A stretch of DNA of 38,107 nt from Candidatus Altimarinota bacterium (lineage in GTDB: Bacteria > Patescibacteriota > Gracilibacteria > BD1-5 > UBA2023), in the NCBI GenBank assembly GCA_043756665.1, contig JAYUQR010000045.1, positions 1-38,107 of the forward strand, written 5' to 3'. The notes under the pieces were generated by a model. It was given only the letters and a program-made list of their open reading frames with translations. It searched no databases and had not been told where the DNA came from. Positions 19,092 to 34,445 of the stretch are shown in pieces (positions within the stretch are counted from its first letter, which is position 1; every line of letters begins with the position of its first letter). The translations under genes were made by a program, and so were the position numbers.

Positions 19092-20530
19092 TATTTTTTT
19101 ACGAAGTTAGCTTTTATAGTGAGGTCGAATAATTTTGGAGCTTTTCTGTAGTATCATGTTGGAGTAGTAAATTCATCTCATGCTTGCAATAATATCTTTG
19201 TGCGGGCATATCAGAAAGTAGACGGGTATCATGCTGTCTGTAATGCATCCTTCACCATATTTGGGGTTATTTCCATATACCCATACCTCGGATTGCCGAG
19301 AGAGTCTGGTGAGATGCCATTCGTGGAATCTGTTATTTCACCGACAGATATATATTTGGCCGTATTAATCATCTCCATTCAATCCGTTTGTATGAGGATA
19401 GATATCTTCATTGCTGTTCATGGATTAGGATAGGCTCACGCCTGAAACATATATCAGAACCTGTATGAAAGATCTGCTTTAGGAACATTGTATATTCCGC
19501 CATCAAGTGGTCTGAGTGTCAGAAAGTTATCCCTTTTATATGCTCCTCACTGGTAGAGGAGGCGGCTTCCTCCAGTTACGAATCAAAGGATTGCTGTATT
19601 GCTTATTAGATTTGCAGTATAACTCGTTGTCGTCTCACTCAATATTATATTTCGCCCTGGCTTTTTCTTATTGTAGTATCGTATTTTTGCTGAGCCATCT
19701 ATGAGTACCACTCATCTATTATATCATATATTAGTATCTTCAGATAGTGTGACTGCTTTTACGAATTGGTTTTGCCTCGCTTGGTATATGTGTATTCAAT
19801 ATCTAGATACCCAGTAGAGTTCATTATAGTTTCCTACGGCACTGAGAAGCTTTGCGGAATATATGGGAGTTTTTGATACTATCGTGTATGCACTCCCTGT
19901 GAATTCGAGCTCATATATAAATGTATCGTTTCCATTAGTAGTGGCTACTACTACAGAGTCATAAGAATAGCTATAGATATACTTTATTTTTGTTCATGGG
20001 GTGAGTGTAGCCGCTAATACTGTTGTATCGGTCGTTGTGCTGTATGAGTAGACGAGATTATCTTTCCCAAAAAGTATATTCGTGACATGAGTTCATATTG
20101 CTGTTACTTCGGTATTTGCAGTTGGGTATCCTGTTGTAGAGATCGCTCCTATATTTGTTGTTCCTATATAATCTGTCTTTCTCACTCAGTCTGTCCTTCC
20201 GAAGAAATAATTGATTTGTGTAAGCCCACTTCACACTGATTCCATTCCATCGACGGTTACAAGTCCAGTTGTCAAAATTGTTCATGTAGGATTTATGACT
20301 CATGATCATCCTCTAAATGGTCAATATGAAGTCTCCTTTATCCATAATGCCGTCCACGTATGAGAATAATCTCCATCTACAGTGAACCTATCCATACATT
20401 GAATATATCGCTCATTCGTTTGTGCGTCTATAGAGTCCATCTCAAGTACACTATTTTCTGGTCATATAAAATCATCATCACTGATTCCTCCCCAGAAGTT
20501 CGTATATGTTTTTTCTATATCGTATGACAT
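19091..20530 (-). CDS. tail/nozzle-type structural protein (479 aa)
   Basis: This region has almost no standard-code ORFs, yet one frame is open from ATG 20530 to TAA 19091-19093 when TGA=Gly (all codons translated). Product MSYDIEKTYTNFWGGISDDDFIGPENSVLEMDSIDAQTNERYIQCMDRFTVDGDYSHTWTALW... The role is assigned from position after the connector gene. Confidence 0.8.
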
Positions 20531-25527: not shown

Positions 25528-27048
25528 TTATACTTTTCTTGCGAAGCTCCACATTTGTACATCTTTTGGCTTTATCTTGTTCTTATAGCTCACTCAGAGG
25601 TATCTGAATGCGTCACTTCAGTTTGAATTTATGTCGTGCTTTGGCTTATCCCTGAATATTCCATTCTTCTCATCGTATTCCCTTCGGTATCATGCGAGTC
25701 TGGTGAGTCCGACACTTGTTGTCTCTTCGCTAAAAAAACAGTAAGGAAACATATCTCGAACTGCATTAATCCCATCAGAGATAGAGAGCTTGGGCACTAC
25801 TTCTACCTTGCCCTTCAGATACTGTCTTGCTGTTTGTATTCTTGCTACTCCCATAGAGTATTCTGTGACCTCTGCATCGTGTGGGAGATAGTGAGTGTCG
25901 TACTTCTCATATCGAGTATTCACTATACTCATCGCTATCTCTGTAAGACCATAGCCTGATCCTTCCCAGTAATCTATAAGTCTCACTTCTCTCCCGAGTA
26001 TCTGATAGAACCATATGGCAGTCTCATCTCATCATCCTGCTCATCAGAGATCCCAGTGAGTATTTATGGGGAGTCTAGGATCATATGGGAATCTTCACAC
26101 TCTATTTTGACTTCTTGTGATTCCTAGTTCCTTCTCGTAGTACGCTCACTTGATGGCAAGGTCAAATGCCTCCTTAGGATAGCTTGGATATTCTCTGAGC
26201 ATATCTTCGTGCTGTTCCTCTCTCTTCTTCTGATACCATCTCATTTTTTTCTCAGCGAATCGTATGTCTGAGTGATTCTTCCGTATCCAGGAGTCTTGTT
26301 GTACTTTTTTGAAATATTCGCGAGTCTCGCTTGTTATTACTTCTCAGGATTCTAGCTCATATTCATCATCCAGCCACCAAGCATAGAAGTGAAACTTGTA
26401 ATCCATATCAGTGAGCTCTTTCCCCATCTCTTGGAGCTCCATTGCTTTCGTACACATATCGTAATAGTTTCCTGAGTTTCCCTCTGCCGTACTTTCTATA
26501 TCCACTTCACTTGTTGGGGCTACTGTATTGAGGGCTCCTGTCTGTATTTCTCTTGCCTTCTCTGGATACTTGTTACAGATCTTCCCGTATTCTGATATAT
26601 GGAGATGCTGAAGTGTTCCCCCCCGAAAAGAGGTATCTATCGATACAGAACAATGGTTGGATTCGAATACAAGTTCTCACTTTCGATCTGTCTTTACTTT
26701 GAAGGTATCTTTCAACCACTTCGGTAGGTTATCGAATGCGAACTTTACCTTGTCCCGGAATATAAGCTCTGCACTGTCTCGATCGTCTGCAATGATACCC
26801 ATTGATTTGTAAGAGGAGAAGAGAGCTTTGTCTAGTATCATTACATCTATGAACGTAGAAAATCCCAATTGACGAGCTTTAAGGATTATATTCTTCGTAT
26901 GTCTGTTGTGATAGTAGTGAGTCTGTTGCTTGTTTGGTATGAACGGGATTTTATTCCCTTGCTTATCTTTAATCGAATAAAGCTTTCACGAAAACAATCG
27001 CCACTCCTTATCTCCCAGATATGTCTTGATTTGTTCTAATTCGGTCAT
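25528..27048 (-). CDS. terL: terminase large subunit (506 aa)
   Basis: ATG 27048, TAA 25528-25530. ATPase motifs are NIILKARQLGFSTF (Walker A-like) and TLQHLHISEYGK. Nuclease motifs are HWDLGGAGGGDETAIWFYQ and NGSDAFRYLGV. Many motif glycines are TGA, for example 25618-25620. Confidence 0.92.
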
Positions 27049-27119: not shown

Positions 27120-27503
27120 CTATTGTAGTCATTGAATCTCTGATAATACAGATCATAGGATATTAAGGTTCTCAGTCGCTTTCCCTGTTATTAGCTGATT
27201 TTGTTTAAAAGTAGATTCCCTTAAGCTCGTCAACTGTGCGATTGTAATAGATTCATCCTCACTCTCTATCATCTTTTGAATTAAAACGTCTGCAAGGGAC
27301 TGTAGATTATTGTTTCTGGTAACTAAATCAGCTACTCATATGCTTTCTTCGCAAACTTCGGCAAATTTAGTGTGGATAATATGATTTACTGTTCGCTCAG
27401 GTATTCAGAGATCTTTGGCGATCTCTGTACCTTGTGCGTTCGTATTTATCTTAGCTTCAACTACTTTTGCTATTATTTCGTCGTTTGTTTTTTTACCTCT
27501 CAT
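27120..27503 (-). CDS. terS: terminase small subunit candidate (127 aa) with N-terminal helix-turn-helix
   Basis: ATG 27503, TAG 27120-27122. Product MRGKKTNDEIIAKVVEAKINTNAQGTEIAKDLGIPERTVNHIIHTKF... It lies directly upstream of terL. Confidence 0.6.
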
Positions 27504-27507
27504 AATT

Positions 27508-27642
27508 TTATCGATTATTGATATGCTCATTGATACTGAACAATACTCTATTAATCGCTTCAGTATTGAATACTTCGAGATTGTTATCTTTCAGGAATTT
27601 CTTGTAGATTTGTTCGTTTGACGGTTGTGGTGTTTCTGGCAT
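27508..27642 (-). CDS. small ORF (44 aa)
   Basis: ATG 27642, TAA 27508-27510. Product MPETPQPSNEQIYKKFLKDNNLEVFNTEAINRVLFSINEHINNR. Confidence 0.4.
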   Translation of the reverse strand: MPETPQPSNEQIYKKFLKDNNLEVFNTEAINRVLFSINEHINNR

Positions 27643-28940: not shown

Positions 28941-29339
28941 TTAAAATGATGAAAGTATTAGATTCTTCTCGGACGGAGTTATAGTCGTTGCATGTCTCAT
29001 TGGGAACATCTTATTGAGTCATTCTGTGAATTGGATTGGGAATATTCCATACTTATCCTTACATTCACACACCTCATGCATACTGTGCCTTACAGCGAAG
29101 TCACATACATAACGATCTCATCCATTCTGCTGTCTCACTATCTCGCGGAATCATAGATAGTCTCTCCATAGTCAATCATGGAGTGTTTTACCTGTATCTG
29201 CATCGTGGATCTCTAGAGAATCGCTGTAGTTAGCGAGCTTTTGATCTATTTTTAGTTTTTGATACTGATTCTCAGTGATGGGAATCTCTCGATCCTTAGT
29301 GAGTTCGAGTATGTGGGTTCGTGGGTTTGTAGTGAGCAT
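28941..29339 (-). CDS. hypothetical protein (132 aa), possible PD-(D/E)xK-type nuclease
   Basis: ATG 29339, TAA 28941-28943, four in-frame TGA. The segment ...GGDRYVCDFAVRHSMHEVCECKDKYG resembles the D ... (D/E)xK core of restriction-endonuclease-fold enzymes. This is a weak motif-level call. Confidence 0.6.
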
Positions 29340-29357
29340 TTTTTAGAAAATTATAAA

Positions 29358-30053
29358 TTAAACAACGGTTCCTCTCCTCGGTCGATTCTCTATCTCTGAC
29401 TTCTTATTGACCGCGTCATTGTATACTTGTGCATAATGCTTATACACTGTCTCTGCATTATATACCTTCCCATTCCAGAAGTCGAGCCTCGACGATATAA
29501 AAATAATCTGCTTACAGAATTCTATGCGTGACATATTCGCTTTCTCACAGATCTCTCAGAATTCTTTTCAGGAAAGTATATTTTTTGCTCGTTCCCGTTC
29601 GTATTTTCATTTCCGATAAATGAGCCCAAGGTGCTCTACTTGTCACTGTATGATTTCGAGGAGATCATTGATTTCTTCATTTCTGAATTCTTGTTGTACG
29701 ACGAGAGCTTGCTCTCATTCTTCTTTAGAAGAATTTTGATTTGAATTGACTTGGTTTGACTTGGTTTGACTTGGTTTGGTCGCACGTTTTTTTAAATCTT
29801 CTCGCCCCATAGGTCGCCCCATAGGTGCGAGATCTATTCTAAGCGGATTTCATTTTTTCGAGCTCGCTTTATTCTCAATTTGTACAGCCTCCGTCCAAAT
29901 ACTCAAAACTACCCCTCATCTCATCGATTGTTCTATGTCGATAATCTCTCCGATCGATAGCCTCATAAGAGAATCGAATACGTACGCCTTATCAGAATCG
30001 ACCATATAGGTAATCTGCATGGCGTAGTGTGTTGGGATCCGAAGTATGTCCAT
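29358..30053 (-). CDS. putative replication initiator / DNA-binding protein (231 aa) with tandem DNA repeats inside its linker-coding region
   Basis: ATG 30053, TAA 29358-29360, seven in-frame TGA. It is the first gene of the leftward module. The central low-complexity segment LAPMGRPMGREDLKKRATKPSQTKSNQVNSNQNSSKEE is encoded by the repeats at 29748..29825. The function is inferred from this architecture only. Confidence 0.65.
29748..29777. repeat. three perfect tandem 10-bp repeats (gacttggttt), iteron-like
   Basis: gacttggttt occurs at 29748, 29758 and 29768. It is preceded by degenerate tttga units, so the TTGAC cores are spaced one helical turn apart. Confidence 0.9.
29802..29825. repeat. 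two perfect tandem 12-bp repeats (tcgccccatagg)
   Basis: tcgccccatagg occurs at 29802 and 29814. An A/T-rich tract tttttttaaat (29787-29797) separates it from the 10-bp repeats. Confidence 0.9.
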
Positions 30054-30068
30054 ATATATATAAAAAAC

Positions 30069-30125
30069 TCTCGAAAACCTACTTCTGGGGGAATTTTGCG
30101 ATACGCCCAGGGCAGGTTTTCGAGA
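30069..30125. promoter_or_regulatory. 12-bp inverted repeat with nested 5-bp repeat, just upstream of the initiator-like gene
   Basis: tctcgaaaacct (30069-30080) is complementary to aggttttcgaga (30114-30125). Nested inside are ctggg (30085-30089) and cccag (30106-30110). The element lies 16 nt from ATG 30053. Confidence 0.6.
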
Positions 30126-30880
30126 ATTGTTTAGTTTGCAAAATTCACTTACCGTATCGCACCCCTATTCTATCCCTTTCCCAATATAAAGCAAATATTT
30201 TGTAGTGGCTTAGTAATTGTAGAGAAAATAATCTTATTTATACTACTGTTCTGTCTAGAATTAGACGTTGATGGATATTGGAAGATTCCTTGATATAAAA
30301 AACTCTCTATTACTAGAGAGAAACTATCACGATACTTCATACTATCAACAAGAGAGTATTCGTCTGTTATGCTGACGAGTGAGAAATATACAAGCTCACC
30401 GATTGATTTGATTATACAGGCGAGATCTTTTTTTATTTCTGTGACCTATTCTATTATATGAGTTTTATCAGAGAAAGAAATAGATATATTCCTAAGGTTC
30501 TTGAATCCCTTTAGATGCCTTCCCTCTGGTATCATCTTACAAGATATCATATAAAATAGAGTACTATATAATATCATTCTTGTTCACTTTATGTGTACGA
30601 TTATCGCAGTGTATATTTTATGTGATGGCTTTATAGAGCCTTTTCATATACTTTATTCAAAATAAACTTGCGATAAAAGAAAATAAGAATATACTTGTTT
30701 TACGTTCAGCACAACATTCGGTACACGCTACTCCTCGAGAGAGAATGAAGACCGAAAAGGAACTCACAAGAAACAACTCAAAAATAGTTTCTCTCATATA
30801 TAGGACTTTCTGCATGTCGGATATATAGTCGCTATCGAGAGAGACTAGAACTTGAGAAATCAAGTAAAGACGCCCTAGCC

Positions 30881-30886
30881 TATAAT
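30881..30886 (+). promoter_or_regulatory. -10-like TATAAT box immediately upstream of the structured RNA candidate
   Basis: A perfect TATAAT sits at 30881-30886. No convincing -35 element lies at 16-18 nt spacing. Confidence 0.3.
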
Positions 30887-30887
30887 T

Positions 30888-31029
30888 AGGGTGAAGTGGT
30901 GGCGGAATAGATAACGCACTGTACTTCTCGCAGGGCGGGTAAGCCACGAGCGATTAGAGATTTATAAAACCTGTTATTGCAAGGTGACTATACGAGTATC
31001 TCTCGGCAAATCCTTGCCCACTTCACTCT
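30888..31029 (+). ncRNA. structured RNA candidate (~140 nt), class unknown
   Basis: A 12-bp closing helix pairs agggtgaagtgg (30888-30899) with ccacttcactct (31018-31029, one G-U). Internal helices are gtggc/gccac, cgcactg/cagggcg, gcaagg/ccttgc and cgag/ctcg. A T6 run follows at 31039-31044. No plausible ORF covers it. Confidence 0.45.
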
Positions 31030-31126
31030 ATTTATAACTTTTTTCTATATGAACGAATACGAACTCTTCCGCAGGTATGAACAAGAACGGGAATATTTTG
31101 AGCGAGATCCTGAATAGTCAGTATAT

Positions 31127-31216
31127 GGTGACTATGGTGTAATAGTAGCACACACTCTACTTTAGTCCTGAGTGGGAGAGCCGACGGGCAAGTAGGTGTA
31201 AATCCTACAGTCACTG
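31127..31216 (+). ncRNA. tRNA-like element (type-II-like cloverleaf with irregular anticodon loop)
   Basis: The acceptor stem pairs GGTGACT (31127-31133) with AGTCACT (31209-31215), with G1-U72. The D-stem has 3 bp. The T-arm is GTAGG-TGTAAAT-CCTAC (31192-31208). A long variable arm has a GCC/GGC stem. The anticodon stem CACTC/GAGTG encloses 12 nt (TACTTTAGTCCT) instead of 7. A T6 run follows at 31220-31225. Confidence 0.35.
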
Positions 31217-31240
31217 ACATTTTTTAACCTTTCTTAAAGT

Positions 31241-31438
31241 ATGACAATTCTCGAATCAAACATCTGCACTATCTGTGAATGATATAAATCGAACGAAATA
31301 GAGGCACTTATATCTGAGCTTCAGATGATTGCCGATCGAAAGTATTCCGAGGAGGAAAACTATATTCCCTCTGAAGTAAAATACAGTCTTCCCGAGATAG
31401 ATTCGTCACTTGCTAGATTATCTCTCTATCAACAATAA
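31241..31438 (+). CDS. hypothetical protein (65 aa), first rightward gene
   Basis: ATG 31241, TAA 31436-31438. Product MTILESNICTICEGYKSNEIEALISELQMIADRKYSEEENYIPSEVKYSLPEIDSSLARLSLYQQ. Confidence 0.55.
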
Positions 31439-31448
31439 CAAATATCCC

Positions 31449-31703
31449 ATGAAAACAATCATAAATATCGCCATAGCACTCTTTATACTAAGTGTTGCGG
31501 TACTTCCTACTCCGACAGAGTGAAAAACTCTCTACAACTCAGATTGGTGTGATAAAATGTACTCTGAAATGTTCTTCCAGGACGTTCCTCCTACAATTCA
31601 GAAAGAATGCTGAAATAGATTCATCTATCTCACGAATGTCCAGAAATCCTATTATGTAATCACTAGTATATGACATATAAACAAACTCTTGAGGCTCAGA
31701 TAG
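31449..31703 (+). CDS. small secreted/membrane-anchored protein (84 aa)
   Basis: ATG 31449, TAG 31701-31703. Product MKTIINIAIALFILSVAVLPTPTEGKTLYNSDWCDKMYSEMFFQDVPPTIQKECGNRF... has an N-terminal hydrophobic signal-like segment. Confidence 0.6.
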
Positions 31704-31924
31704 AAATTGACTCTCGCAATCTCAGAAAAGTTCTCTCTTGAGAAAAGGTCGTTCGGTGTAGAGATCAGATAGTGATCGCCCTAAATATCCGTATCCTCGA
31801 TTATGGTCAAAAAATCTTTAACGCTTCATTATGAACACCTGATTTCTCTTAGCTCTCATATTCATACTCTGAATATCATTTTTTATTTCACGATTATCTC
31901 GATAATAACTCTAATTTTTACTAT

Positions 31925-32620
31925 ATGGAAACAAAAAATATTTCTTCTGCAATAATAGCAGTTATGCGAGAGATTAATGGAGTAGAGAAGTCTATGACTG
32001 TATGAAGTGGAAACAACTCGTATCAATGAGTGAGCGATAAAGACGTAAAGATTCTTATTCGAGATTCGATGATAAAAAATTGACTCGCTATCTTTCCCGC
32101 AGAAATAAACGCAAAAATCCAAATAGATAGATGGGAAGAAGATGATACGTATAATAAAAATCCACCATATCCAAAAAAGTCCAAGCAATCCGTTTTTACG
32201 GAGGTCACGACAAGGTATATTATTTTACACACAAGCGGGGAATCACTCGAATTAGCTGGATATGGACAGGGCGTAGATGCCCAAGATAAATGAGCAGGAA
32301 AGGCAACGACATATGCGCTAAAAAATACTCTTCTGAATATGTTTCTTATTCCTACAGGGGTAGACACTGACAATACCCACTCTGATGATATTCCAGTACC
32401 ACAAAAATCTATTGATACACCCAATGGATGAAAAAAAGAATATCCAGTCACCAAGTGGTTGAACTTCAGAGATCTCGAAAATCTCGTAAATTCATGAATC
32501 GATACAGAGGCTCTTCTTTCGAATCATATTAAAGATAATGAATTCACTCTTTCGAACAATATGAAGAAGACTCTCCGAGCCTATTGTGATAGTGGTGAAC
32601 TTTCCGAAATCCGATCATAA
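31925..32620 (+). CDS. erf: ERF-family single-strand annealing recombinase (231 aa)
   Basis: ATG 31925, TAA 32618-32620. Product METKNISSAIIAVMREINGVEKSMTVGSGNNSYQGVSDKDVKILIRDSMIKNGLAIFP...DAQDKGAGKATTYALKNTLLNMFLIPTGVDTD matches the ERF pattern as I recall it. Confidence 0.65.
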
Positions 32621-34235: not shown

Positions 34236-34445
34236 ATGCCCCCATCACTCCCCCCTCCAAAGTCTCACGCTGAACAGATAGCAGACTCACTCTACCAAGC
34301 TCGAAGGTTCGATGACCTTCCCCAGTCTATCCAGCTCGTACGAGTGAATTGACAGGTGATGCGATGAGAGCTCTCGAATGCTGATGGCATGCGAAAGATA
34401 GTACAGATACGAGCGAGGTTCAATTGAATCATTTTAGATATTTAA
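34236..34445 (+). CDS. hypothetical protein (69 aa)
   Basis: ATG 34236, TAA 34443-34445. Product MPPSLPPPKSHAEQIADSLYQARRFDDLPQSIQLVRVNGQVMRGELSNADGMRKIVQIRARFNGIILDI. Its last ~13 codons belong to the duplicated block. Confidence 0.55.

Follow-up and report, generated by a model that had tools for sequence, protein, structure and literature searches.

A candidate replication origin inside the linker-coding DNA of a putative initiator gene in a phage of a Gracilibacteria-type bacterium that reads TGA as glycine

The gene at 29358..30053 contains tandem repeats in the DNA that encodes the linker between its two domains, which raises the question of whether this DNA is a phage replication origin and the gene product the protein that initiates replication there. 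Our analysis indicated that this is probably the case: the gene would encode the replication initiator, and the inferred origin would lie in its disordered-linker DNA. The window, that is, the whole stretch of 38,107 nt that was analysed, is an entire contig and was binned with a 1.36-Mb genome. A DNA methyltransferase ORF was split across the contig ends (37515-38107 and 1-315), and both halves were in frame when the 5-nt A-run overlap of the ends was dropped. Since this ORF was restored across the ends, the window represents a complete phage genome of ~38.1 kb, either circular or terminally redundant.

Under table 11, the ORF at 29358..30053 is interrupted by seven in-frame TGA codons; it stays open only if TGA is read as sense. 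Reading TGA in this way also raised the total length of long ORFs in the window from 3.7 kb to 33 kb. TGA accounted for up to 5.6% of the codons (in one gene), a share that fits glycine and not tryptophan, and code 25 (TGA = Gly) applied across the whole contig. In the alignment of code-25 translations, the TGA positions of the C-terminal domain fell on invariant Gly columns. The features of the locus and its surroundings are listed below.

30054..30140, minus strand: stem-loop and U-run leader ending at the initiator ATG, recognised by covariation
29358..30053, minus strand: putative replication-initiator gene, 231 aa in code 25, first gene of the leftward operon
29856..30053, minus strand: N-terminal three-helix domain (aa 1-66) of "type A", presumed to bind the origin; based on AlphaFold (AF2), codon-position identity and hhalign
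29802..29825: 12-bp array, GC-rich, two perfect units with coding strand CCTATGGGGCGA; candidate primary iterons
29787..29797: A/T tract tttttttaaat (T7AAAT), 11 bp, between the two arrays
29735..29778: 10-bp array, A-rich on the coding strand, three perfect units with coding strand AAACCAAGTC plus degenerate 5-bp CAAAT-type units
29717..29734: dyad 1, a 7-bp inverted repeat ATTCTTC-TTTA-GAAGAAT that encodes SSKEE, recognised by covariation
29703..29716: dyad 2, GAGAGC-TT-GCTCTC, which encodes (G)EQAL at the start of the C-domain, recognised by frozen codons
29361..29702, minus strand: five-helix C-terminal domain, presumed to recruit the replisome; based on alignment, profile search and AF2
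28941..29339, minus strand: gene of a candidate partner protein of 132 aa with the motif CDFG..H..C.C, a conserved downstream gene
31925-32620: Erf gene, by family match
27120-27530: gene of an HTH protein, immediately preceding the large terminase gene
25528-27048: large terminase gene, on the same strand as the initiator gene and ~2.3 kb downstream of it

The repeats were exactly where an earlier note, made from the sequence alone, had placed them. The forward strand carried tcgccccatagg twice (29802-29813 and 29814-29825) and gacttggttt three times (29748-29757, 29758-29767 and 29768-29777), with degenerate tttga/attga units at 29735-29747. These units and the A/T tract all lie inside the linker-coding part of the ORF, and the arrays encode residues ~76-107. 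Tandem Repeats Finder (TRF) scored the array at 29735-29778 at 67 (period 10, 4.4 copies) and the 12-bp array at 50 (period 12, 2.1 copies); higher scores in the 38-kb window were found only in Gly-X repeat genes. The 12-mer had no second match in the genome within two mismatches, and the 10-mer had a single one-mismatch chance match elsewhere, at 19763-19772. AT content in the element peaked over the 30 bp at 29717-29746, where it was 80%; this is a modest value, at the genome's 96th percentile. With its 11 bp, the A/T tract does not have the length needed for an unwinding element.

AlphaFold predicted a three-helix N-domain (aa 8-66, pLDDT 70-87) and a helical C-domain in the 231-aa protein, with a disordered linker between them (aa 77-124, pLDDT 31-35), in agreement with the proposal that the repeats encode a linker between two domains. 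For the full-length protein the model was of low quality (pLDDT 62), and only noise came back when it was compared with PDB by Foldseek. The C-domain modelled alone from 83 sequences was a confident five-helix bundle (pLDDT 85.5). No family in Pfam, PHROG or NCBIfam matched the 231-aa protein of the window, and comparison with PHROG 2514/186/270/428/2562 gave no match at E <= 1.

The family of the protein was approached through its C-domain. Among the 52 close homologs of the 231-aa protein (P0001), the ~120 C-terminal residues were highly conserved. A C-domain profile built from code-25 translations and searched against 1.84 billion representatives matched 241 clusters at E <= 1e-3. Of the 150 matches listed, nearly all involved the C-terminal part of the protein, and most of the proteins were 200-350 aa long. 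The Pfam N-domains among the 115 scanned clusters were DUF6291 (27), HTH_36 (25), Lin1244_N (5), DnaD_N (2) and Phage_rep_org_N (2). The PHROG names among the scanned clusters were DnaD-like helicase loader (31), replication initiation protein (30 and 29) and replication initiation O-like (14), as well as replisome organizer. Homologs with the same C-domain were matched by PHROG 2514/186 ("DnaD-like helicase loader") and by 270/428/2562 ("replication initiation protein"), and the phrog_2514 match covered the full length of the homologs, C-domain included. Because this C-domain is common to initiator families, the assignment of the gene as a phage replication initiator, which the earlier note had put forward, is supported, by way of the shared C-domain only. 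The structure and profile searches proposed in that note thus placed the relatives of the C-domain in initiator families and gave no family for the 231-aa protein itself.

The C-domain had no relative in PDB by sequence profile or by fold, DnaD-type domains included, and its model matched predicted viral "replisome organizer" and "replication initiator" structures only below significance. Pfam DnaB_2 was absent from the protein of the window and from 167 relatives. "DnaD-like" is therefore a label borne by relatives and not a demonstrated fold. The type-A N-domain had no Pfam hit; in hhalign, its alignment matched DUF6291-type N-domains with a probability of 59% and an E-value of 9.4e-5, with a common MSDSD...GEI motif, and the domain may be a distant relative of DUF6291 (PF19808). 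The two domains are exchanged freely: the C-domain was joined to at least six unrelated N-domain types, and the N-domain of the window occurred with three C-domain types, its own and those of P0023 and P0030. An initiator layout of N-domain, linker and C-domain is thus seen in the AF2 models, in the shuffling of N- and C-domains and in the families of the relatives. In one homolog (P0042, 398 aa), an HNH endonuclease domain was inserted between Lin1244_N and the repeat linker.

The gene context was compared with the expectations for an early replication gene. The gene heads the leftward genes, as had been noted from the ORF list, and its neighbours in relatives L007 and L009 were the early genes NinG, RusA, ERF and YopX. 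The scanned ORFs (non-structural, terminase and portal) matched no family of helicases, loaders, primases or polymerases, in line with the earlier observation that no polymerase, helicase or primase was recognisable. ERF/RusA recombination had been suggested as well; the Erf gene was found at 31925-32620, RusA was not detected in the window, and RusA is encoded in relative L009. ARAGORN found no tRNA in the window, and a promoter scan stayed at chance level.

The linker DNA was readable in 13 relatives (L002, L004-L009, L010, L011, L013 and L016, with L014 and L015 read by eye), and all 13 carried tandem arrays at the same place, directly upstream of the C-domain. The array periods were 5, 7, 8, 9, 10, 11, 12, 15, 18 and 23 nt; as most of these are not multiples of 3, the repeats are not peptide repeats. 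The family layout was a GC-containing array (period 10-12), an A/T-rich array of short period, dyad 1 and dyad 2, an order reminiscent of the iterons and AT-rich region of the lambda origin. By position, the 12-mers of the window correspond to the GC-containing first array of the relatives and the 10/5-mers to their A-rich second array; either array could hold the primary iterons. Clearly AT-rich second arrays in relatives included AATAAAGAA and ATATACAA.

The repeat unit tracked the N-domain type (six types) and not the C-domain. Type A (window, L002, L005 and L008) had CAAACCAAGT-type units and ACCTATGGNGCN, type B (L006, L013, L014 and L016) had TGATAAAGCA and ATACAAG, and type C (L009, L010 and L015) had GATAACAAACG and AATAAAGAA. 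L004, a diverged type A, had its own unit TAGAATAGAAGATAA, and L007 and L011 likewise had one unit of their own each. The linker peptides of all 52 homologs fitted the pattern of unit and N-type, and the C-domain and dyad subtypes were shuffled across N-types. That the unit follows the N-domain type is as expected if the N-domain reads the arrays. The 12-mer was found at the same place twice in L002 and L005 and once in L008, and both copies in L002 carried the same base changes. The 10-bp array was kept in L002, L005 and L008 with a variable copy number, and 15 extra nt in L005 gave 5 aa more.

In the comparison of the window with L002, L005 and L008, the third-position identity of the arrays was 0.75-0.88, with about equal identity at all codon positions and no codon periodicity. 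For the N-domain, and for the homologous C-domain of L002, the third-position identity was 0.43-0.54 and the second-position identity 0.91-0.97; within the N-domain alone, second positions were 94-97% identical in the three relatives. The independent pair L009/L010, of another N-type, gave the same picture, with arrays that were 93% identical (third positions 0.89) and domains with third-position identities of 0.45 and 0.54. The arrays are thus the best-conserved DNA of the gene, yet they encode the least structured part of the protein. The earlier note had named conservation of the repeat region as protein rather than DNA as a finding that would speak against an origin; the opposite was found, with array third positions at 0.75-0.89 against 0.43-0.54 in the domains. 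Judged by these sequence comparisons, what is maintained in the repeats is the DNA sequence and not the encoded peptide. The high identity of the arrays could partly reflect recent recombination at the module junction, although the N-type specificity of the arrays speaks against this as a full explanation.

Both dyads lie just outside the span of 29741-29826 that had been proposed as the origin, directly after the arrays when read along the gene. The dyad 1 stems of the relatives comprised at least six different sequences, all of them perfect inverted repeats of 5-7 bp. Among nine distinct variants, 95% of the cells were paired, six of the seven pairs showed compensatory double changes, and none of the 63 cells held a G-T pair. 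None of 500 shuffles reached the score, and slid controls paired in only 19-56% of cells. Dyad 2 covaried little: the one compensatory variant was AAGAGC..GCTCTT, carried by L015 and L016. Its codons GAG CAA GCT CTC had probabilities of the same codon of 1, 1, 1 and 0.8, respectively, compared with ~0.5 across the C-domain. The case for dyad 2 as a conserved DNA element therefore rests mainly on frozen synonymous sites. Both dyads were predicted to fold as ssDNA with -6.8 kcal/mol (z = -2.4).

Further elements flank the gene. The leader has the pattern AACAATTCT...TCGCAA...AGAGTTTTTTATATATATG and was also seen in L010 (1-74) and L011 (61-135) and upstream of the initiators in L004, L005 and L009, which differ in N-domain type. 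Its helix showed compensatory changes in 14 of 19 predicted pairs, some of them via G-U, so that it looks like an RNA element (leader, attenuator or terminator). Rfam over 29300-32000 gave no family, leader included. The ~1.9 kb between the divergent operons (30054-31924) contained small ORFs only and several inverted repeats, and a 15-nt direct repeat, ATATAAAAAACTCTC, occurred at 30058 and 30293. On the other side, five of eight loci (window, L004, L006, L008 and L009) have the 132-aa gene or its homolog immediately after the initiator gene. The 132-aa protein had no Pfam or PHROG match, and its Cys/His motif would suit a zinc-binding protein that works with the initiator.

Since tandem arrays can arise by replication slippage, the repeats could be mere by-products in a fast-evolving disordered linker that need only be flexible, with no function of the DNA itself. 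The predicted disorder of aa 77-124 would suit such an origin of the repeats, as would the copy numbers that differ among relatives (15 nt more in L005, one 12-mer in L008) and the further low-complexity arrays in the Gly-X genes of the same genome. The arrays are, however, the best-conserved DNA of the gene, third positions included, contrary to what a relaxed linker would show. Furthermore, the units stay specific to the N-type even across genomes with swapped C-domains, periods of 10, 11, 8 and 7 nt yield no peptide repeat, and the neighbouring dyad 1 covaries. Pure slippage was rejected on the grounds of third-position conservation, N-type-specific units and dyad covariation, and we regard it as quite improbable. 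Another explanation assigns arrays and dyads a role in cis regulation or recombination, for example as autoregulatory operators, as mRNA structure that tunes translation at the domain boundary, or as linkers for module exchange. Module exchange clearly occurs at this junction, the sequence of dyad 2 with its flanks hardly differs between N-types, and the RNA-type leader structure that precedes the gene indicates that RNA-level control is used at the locus. Dyad 1, however, keeps Watson-Crick symmetry with no G-T pair, which is less expected of an RNA helix, and the leader helix does use G-U. The arrays cannot serve as universal recombination linkers, as they are N-type specific, and autoregulation is compatible with origin function in known initiators. 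Regulation or recombination in place of an origin therefore appears unlikely.

The element could also be a pac site, with the gene encoding a terminase-associated DNA-binding protein at the head of an operon that leads to the terminase genes. Repeat-containing pac sites are found within the small-terminase genes of P22 and SPP1, and the large terminase gene of the window (25528-27048) follows ~2.3 kb downstream on the same strand. Its position in relatives speaks against this: the gene and the terminase operon diverge in L004 and L006, and its neighbours in L007 and L009 are early recombination genes. The homologs belong to replication-initiator families and not to terminase families, and a separate HTH protein (27120-27530) is encoded directly before the large terminase gene. 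The pac reading was rejected on this gene context, on the homolog families and on the separate HTH gene, and its probability is very small.

The replication origin with its own initiator thus remains the favoured reading, and a mechanism can be proposed for it. The order along the gene is the GC-rich 12-bp array with two units, the short A/T tract, the A-rich 10/5-bp array, the 7-bp dyad and the 6-bp dyad. The N-terminal helical domain would bind the tandem units and form a nucleoprotein complex, by analogy with lambda O, SPP1 G38P and TP901-1 ORF13. The AT-rich array and the dyad region would then melt or extrude. Since no helicase, primase or polymerase gene was found among the scanned phage ORFs, the replication proteins recruited by the C-domain would be those of the host. 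The downstream 132-aa Cys/His protein may take part, and Erf-type recombination would support later replication. The cumulative GC skew, suggested in the earlier note as a check, was uninformative: its extremes were at 34337 and 7316 and not at 29.75 kb, and it located no origin. The AT-skew minimum at 30657 is the gene strand switch, and both GC and AT skew were dominated by gene orientation.

Origins within initiator genes are known from several phages. Gene O of lambda and Stx phages carries the origin in its middle part, with iterons followed by an AT-rich region, and two extra iterons in Stx phages give 13 aa more in O (PMC7466680). In SPP1, G38P binds oriL, which is located within gene 38 (PMC6316719), and TP901-1 ORF13 and Tuc2009 Rep2009 bind direct repeats inside their own genes (PMC8965321). 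As in lambda O and the Stx phages P27 and 933W, the window has repeats in the interdomain-linker DNA of the initiator gene with an adjoining, only modestly AT-rich segment, and changes in copy number alter the linker (by 13 aa in Stx and by 5 aa in L005). In lambda O, the N-domain binds DNA, the C-domain recruits the helicase complex and host enzymes are used; the same roles would apply here by analogy. Unlike lambda O, however, whose protein has no detectable sequence or fold relation to that of the window and whose 19-bp units have internal symmetry, the window has direct repeats of 10-12 bp. It also has two short dyads directly after the arrays, no recognisable P-type helicase loader and, as the downstream gene, the 132-aa Cys/His protein, in a Gracilibacteria-type host with TGA = Gly.

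The replisome organizers of SPP1, TP901-1 and Tuc2009 are linked to the window by relatives that share its C-domain and bear Phage_rep_org_N, Lin1244_N or DnaD_N. SPP1 differs in having its own loader G39P, its helicase G40P and a second origin, oriR, none of which were found in the window, and the array units of the window occur at a single site in the genome. In contrast to the Gram-positive replisome organizers, the N-domain of the window is a small three-helix domain of 66 aa that Pfam does not recognise. The layout of an origin inside its initiator gene is a textbook design, and the locus is another example of it in an unstudied protein family.

The dyads allow a further, tentative proposal, which we consider rather unlikely: they may be a second origin element that is independent of the initiator module, a DNA hairpin or cruciform where the C-domain loads the host helicase without a phage loader. 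If true, this would define a distinct class of initiators in phages of ultrasmall bacteria with TGA = Gly, and possibly beyond. Specificity (arrays and N-domain) and start site (dyads and C-domain) would then be two separately exchangeable cassettes.

As the layout itself is already in the textbooks, the conceptual gain is small, and what is particular here is the host group and its code, the C-domain, the clean joint swap of unit and N-domain, and the covarying dyad beside the arrays. Gracilibacteria-type bacteria are not yet culturable, and the replication functions of their phages are unannotated; for these phages, the locus provides a concrete candidate for origin and initiator. A further outcome is the definition of an initiator C-domain that is widespread, lacks a Pfam model and has no relative of solved structure. 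Array units that swap together with the DNA-binding domain are a natural experiment, which could help to predict origin specificity from sequence.
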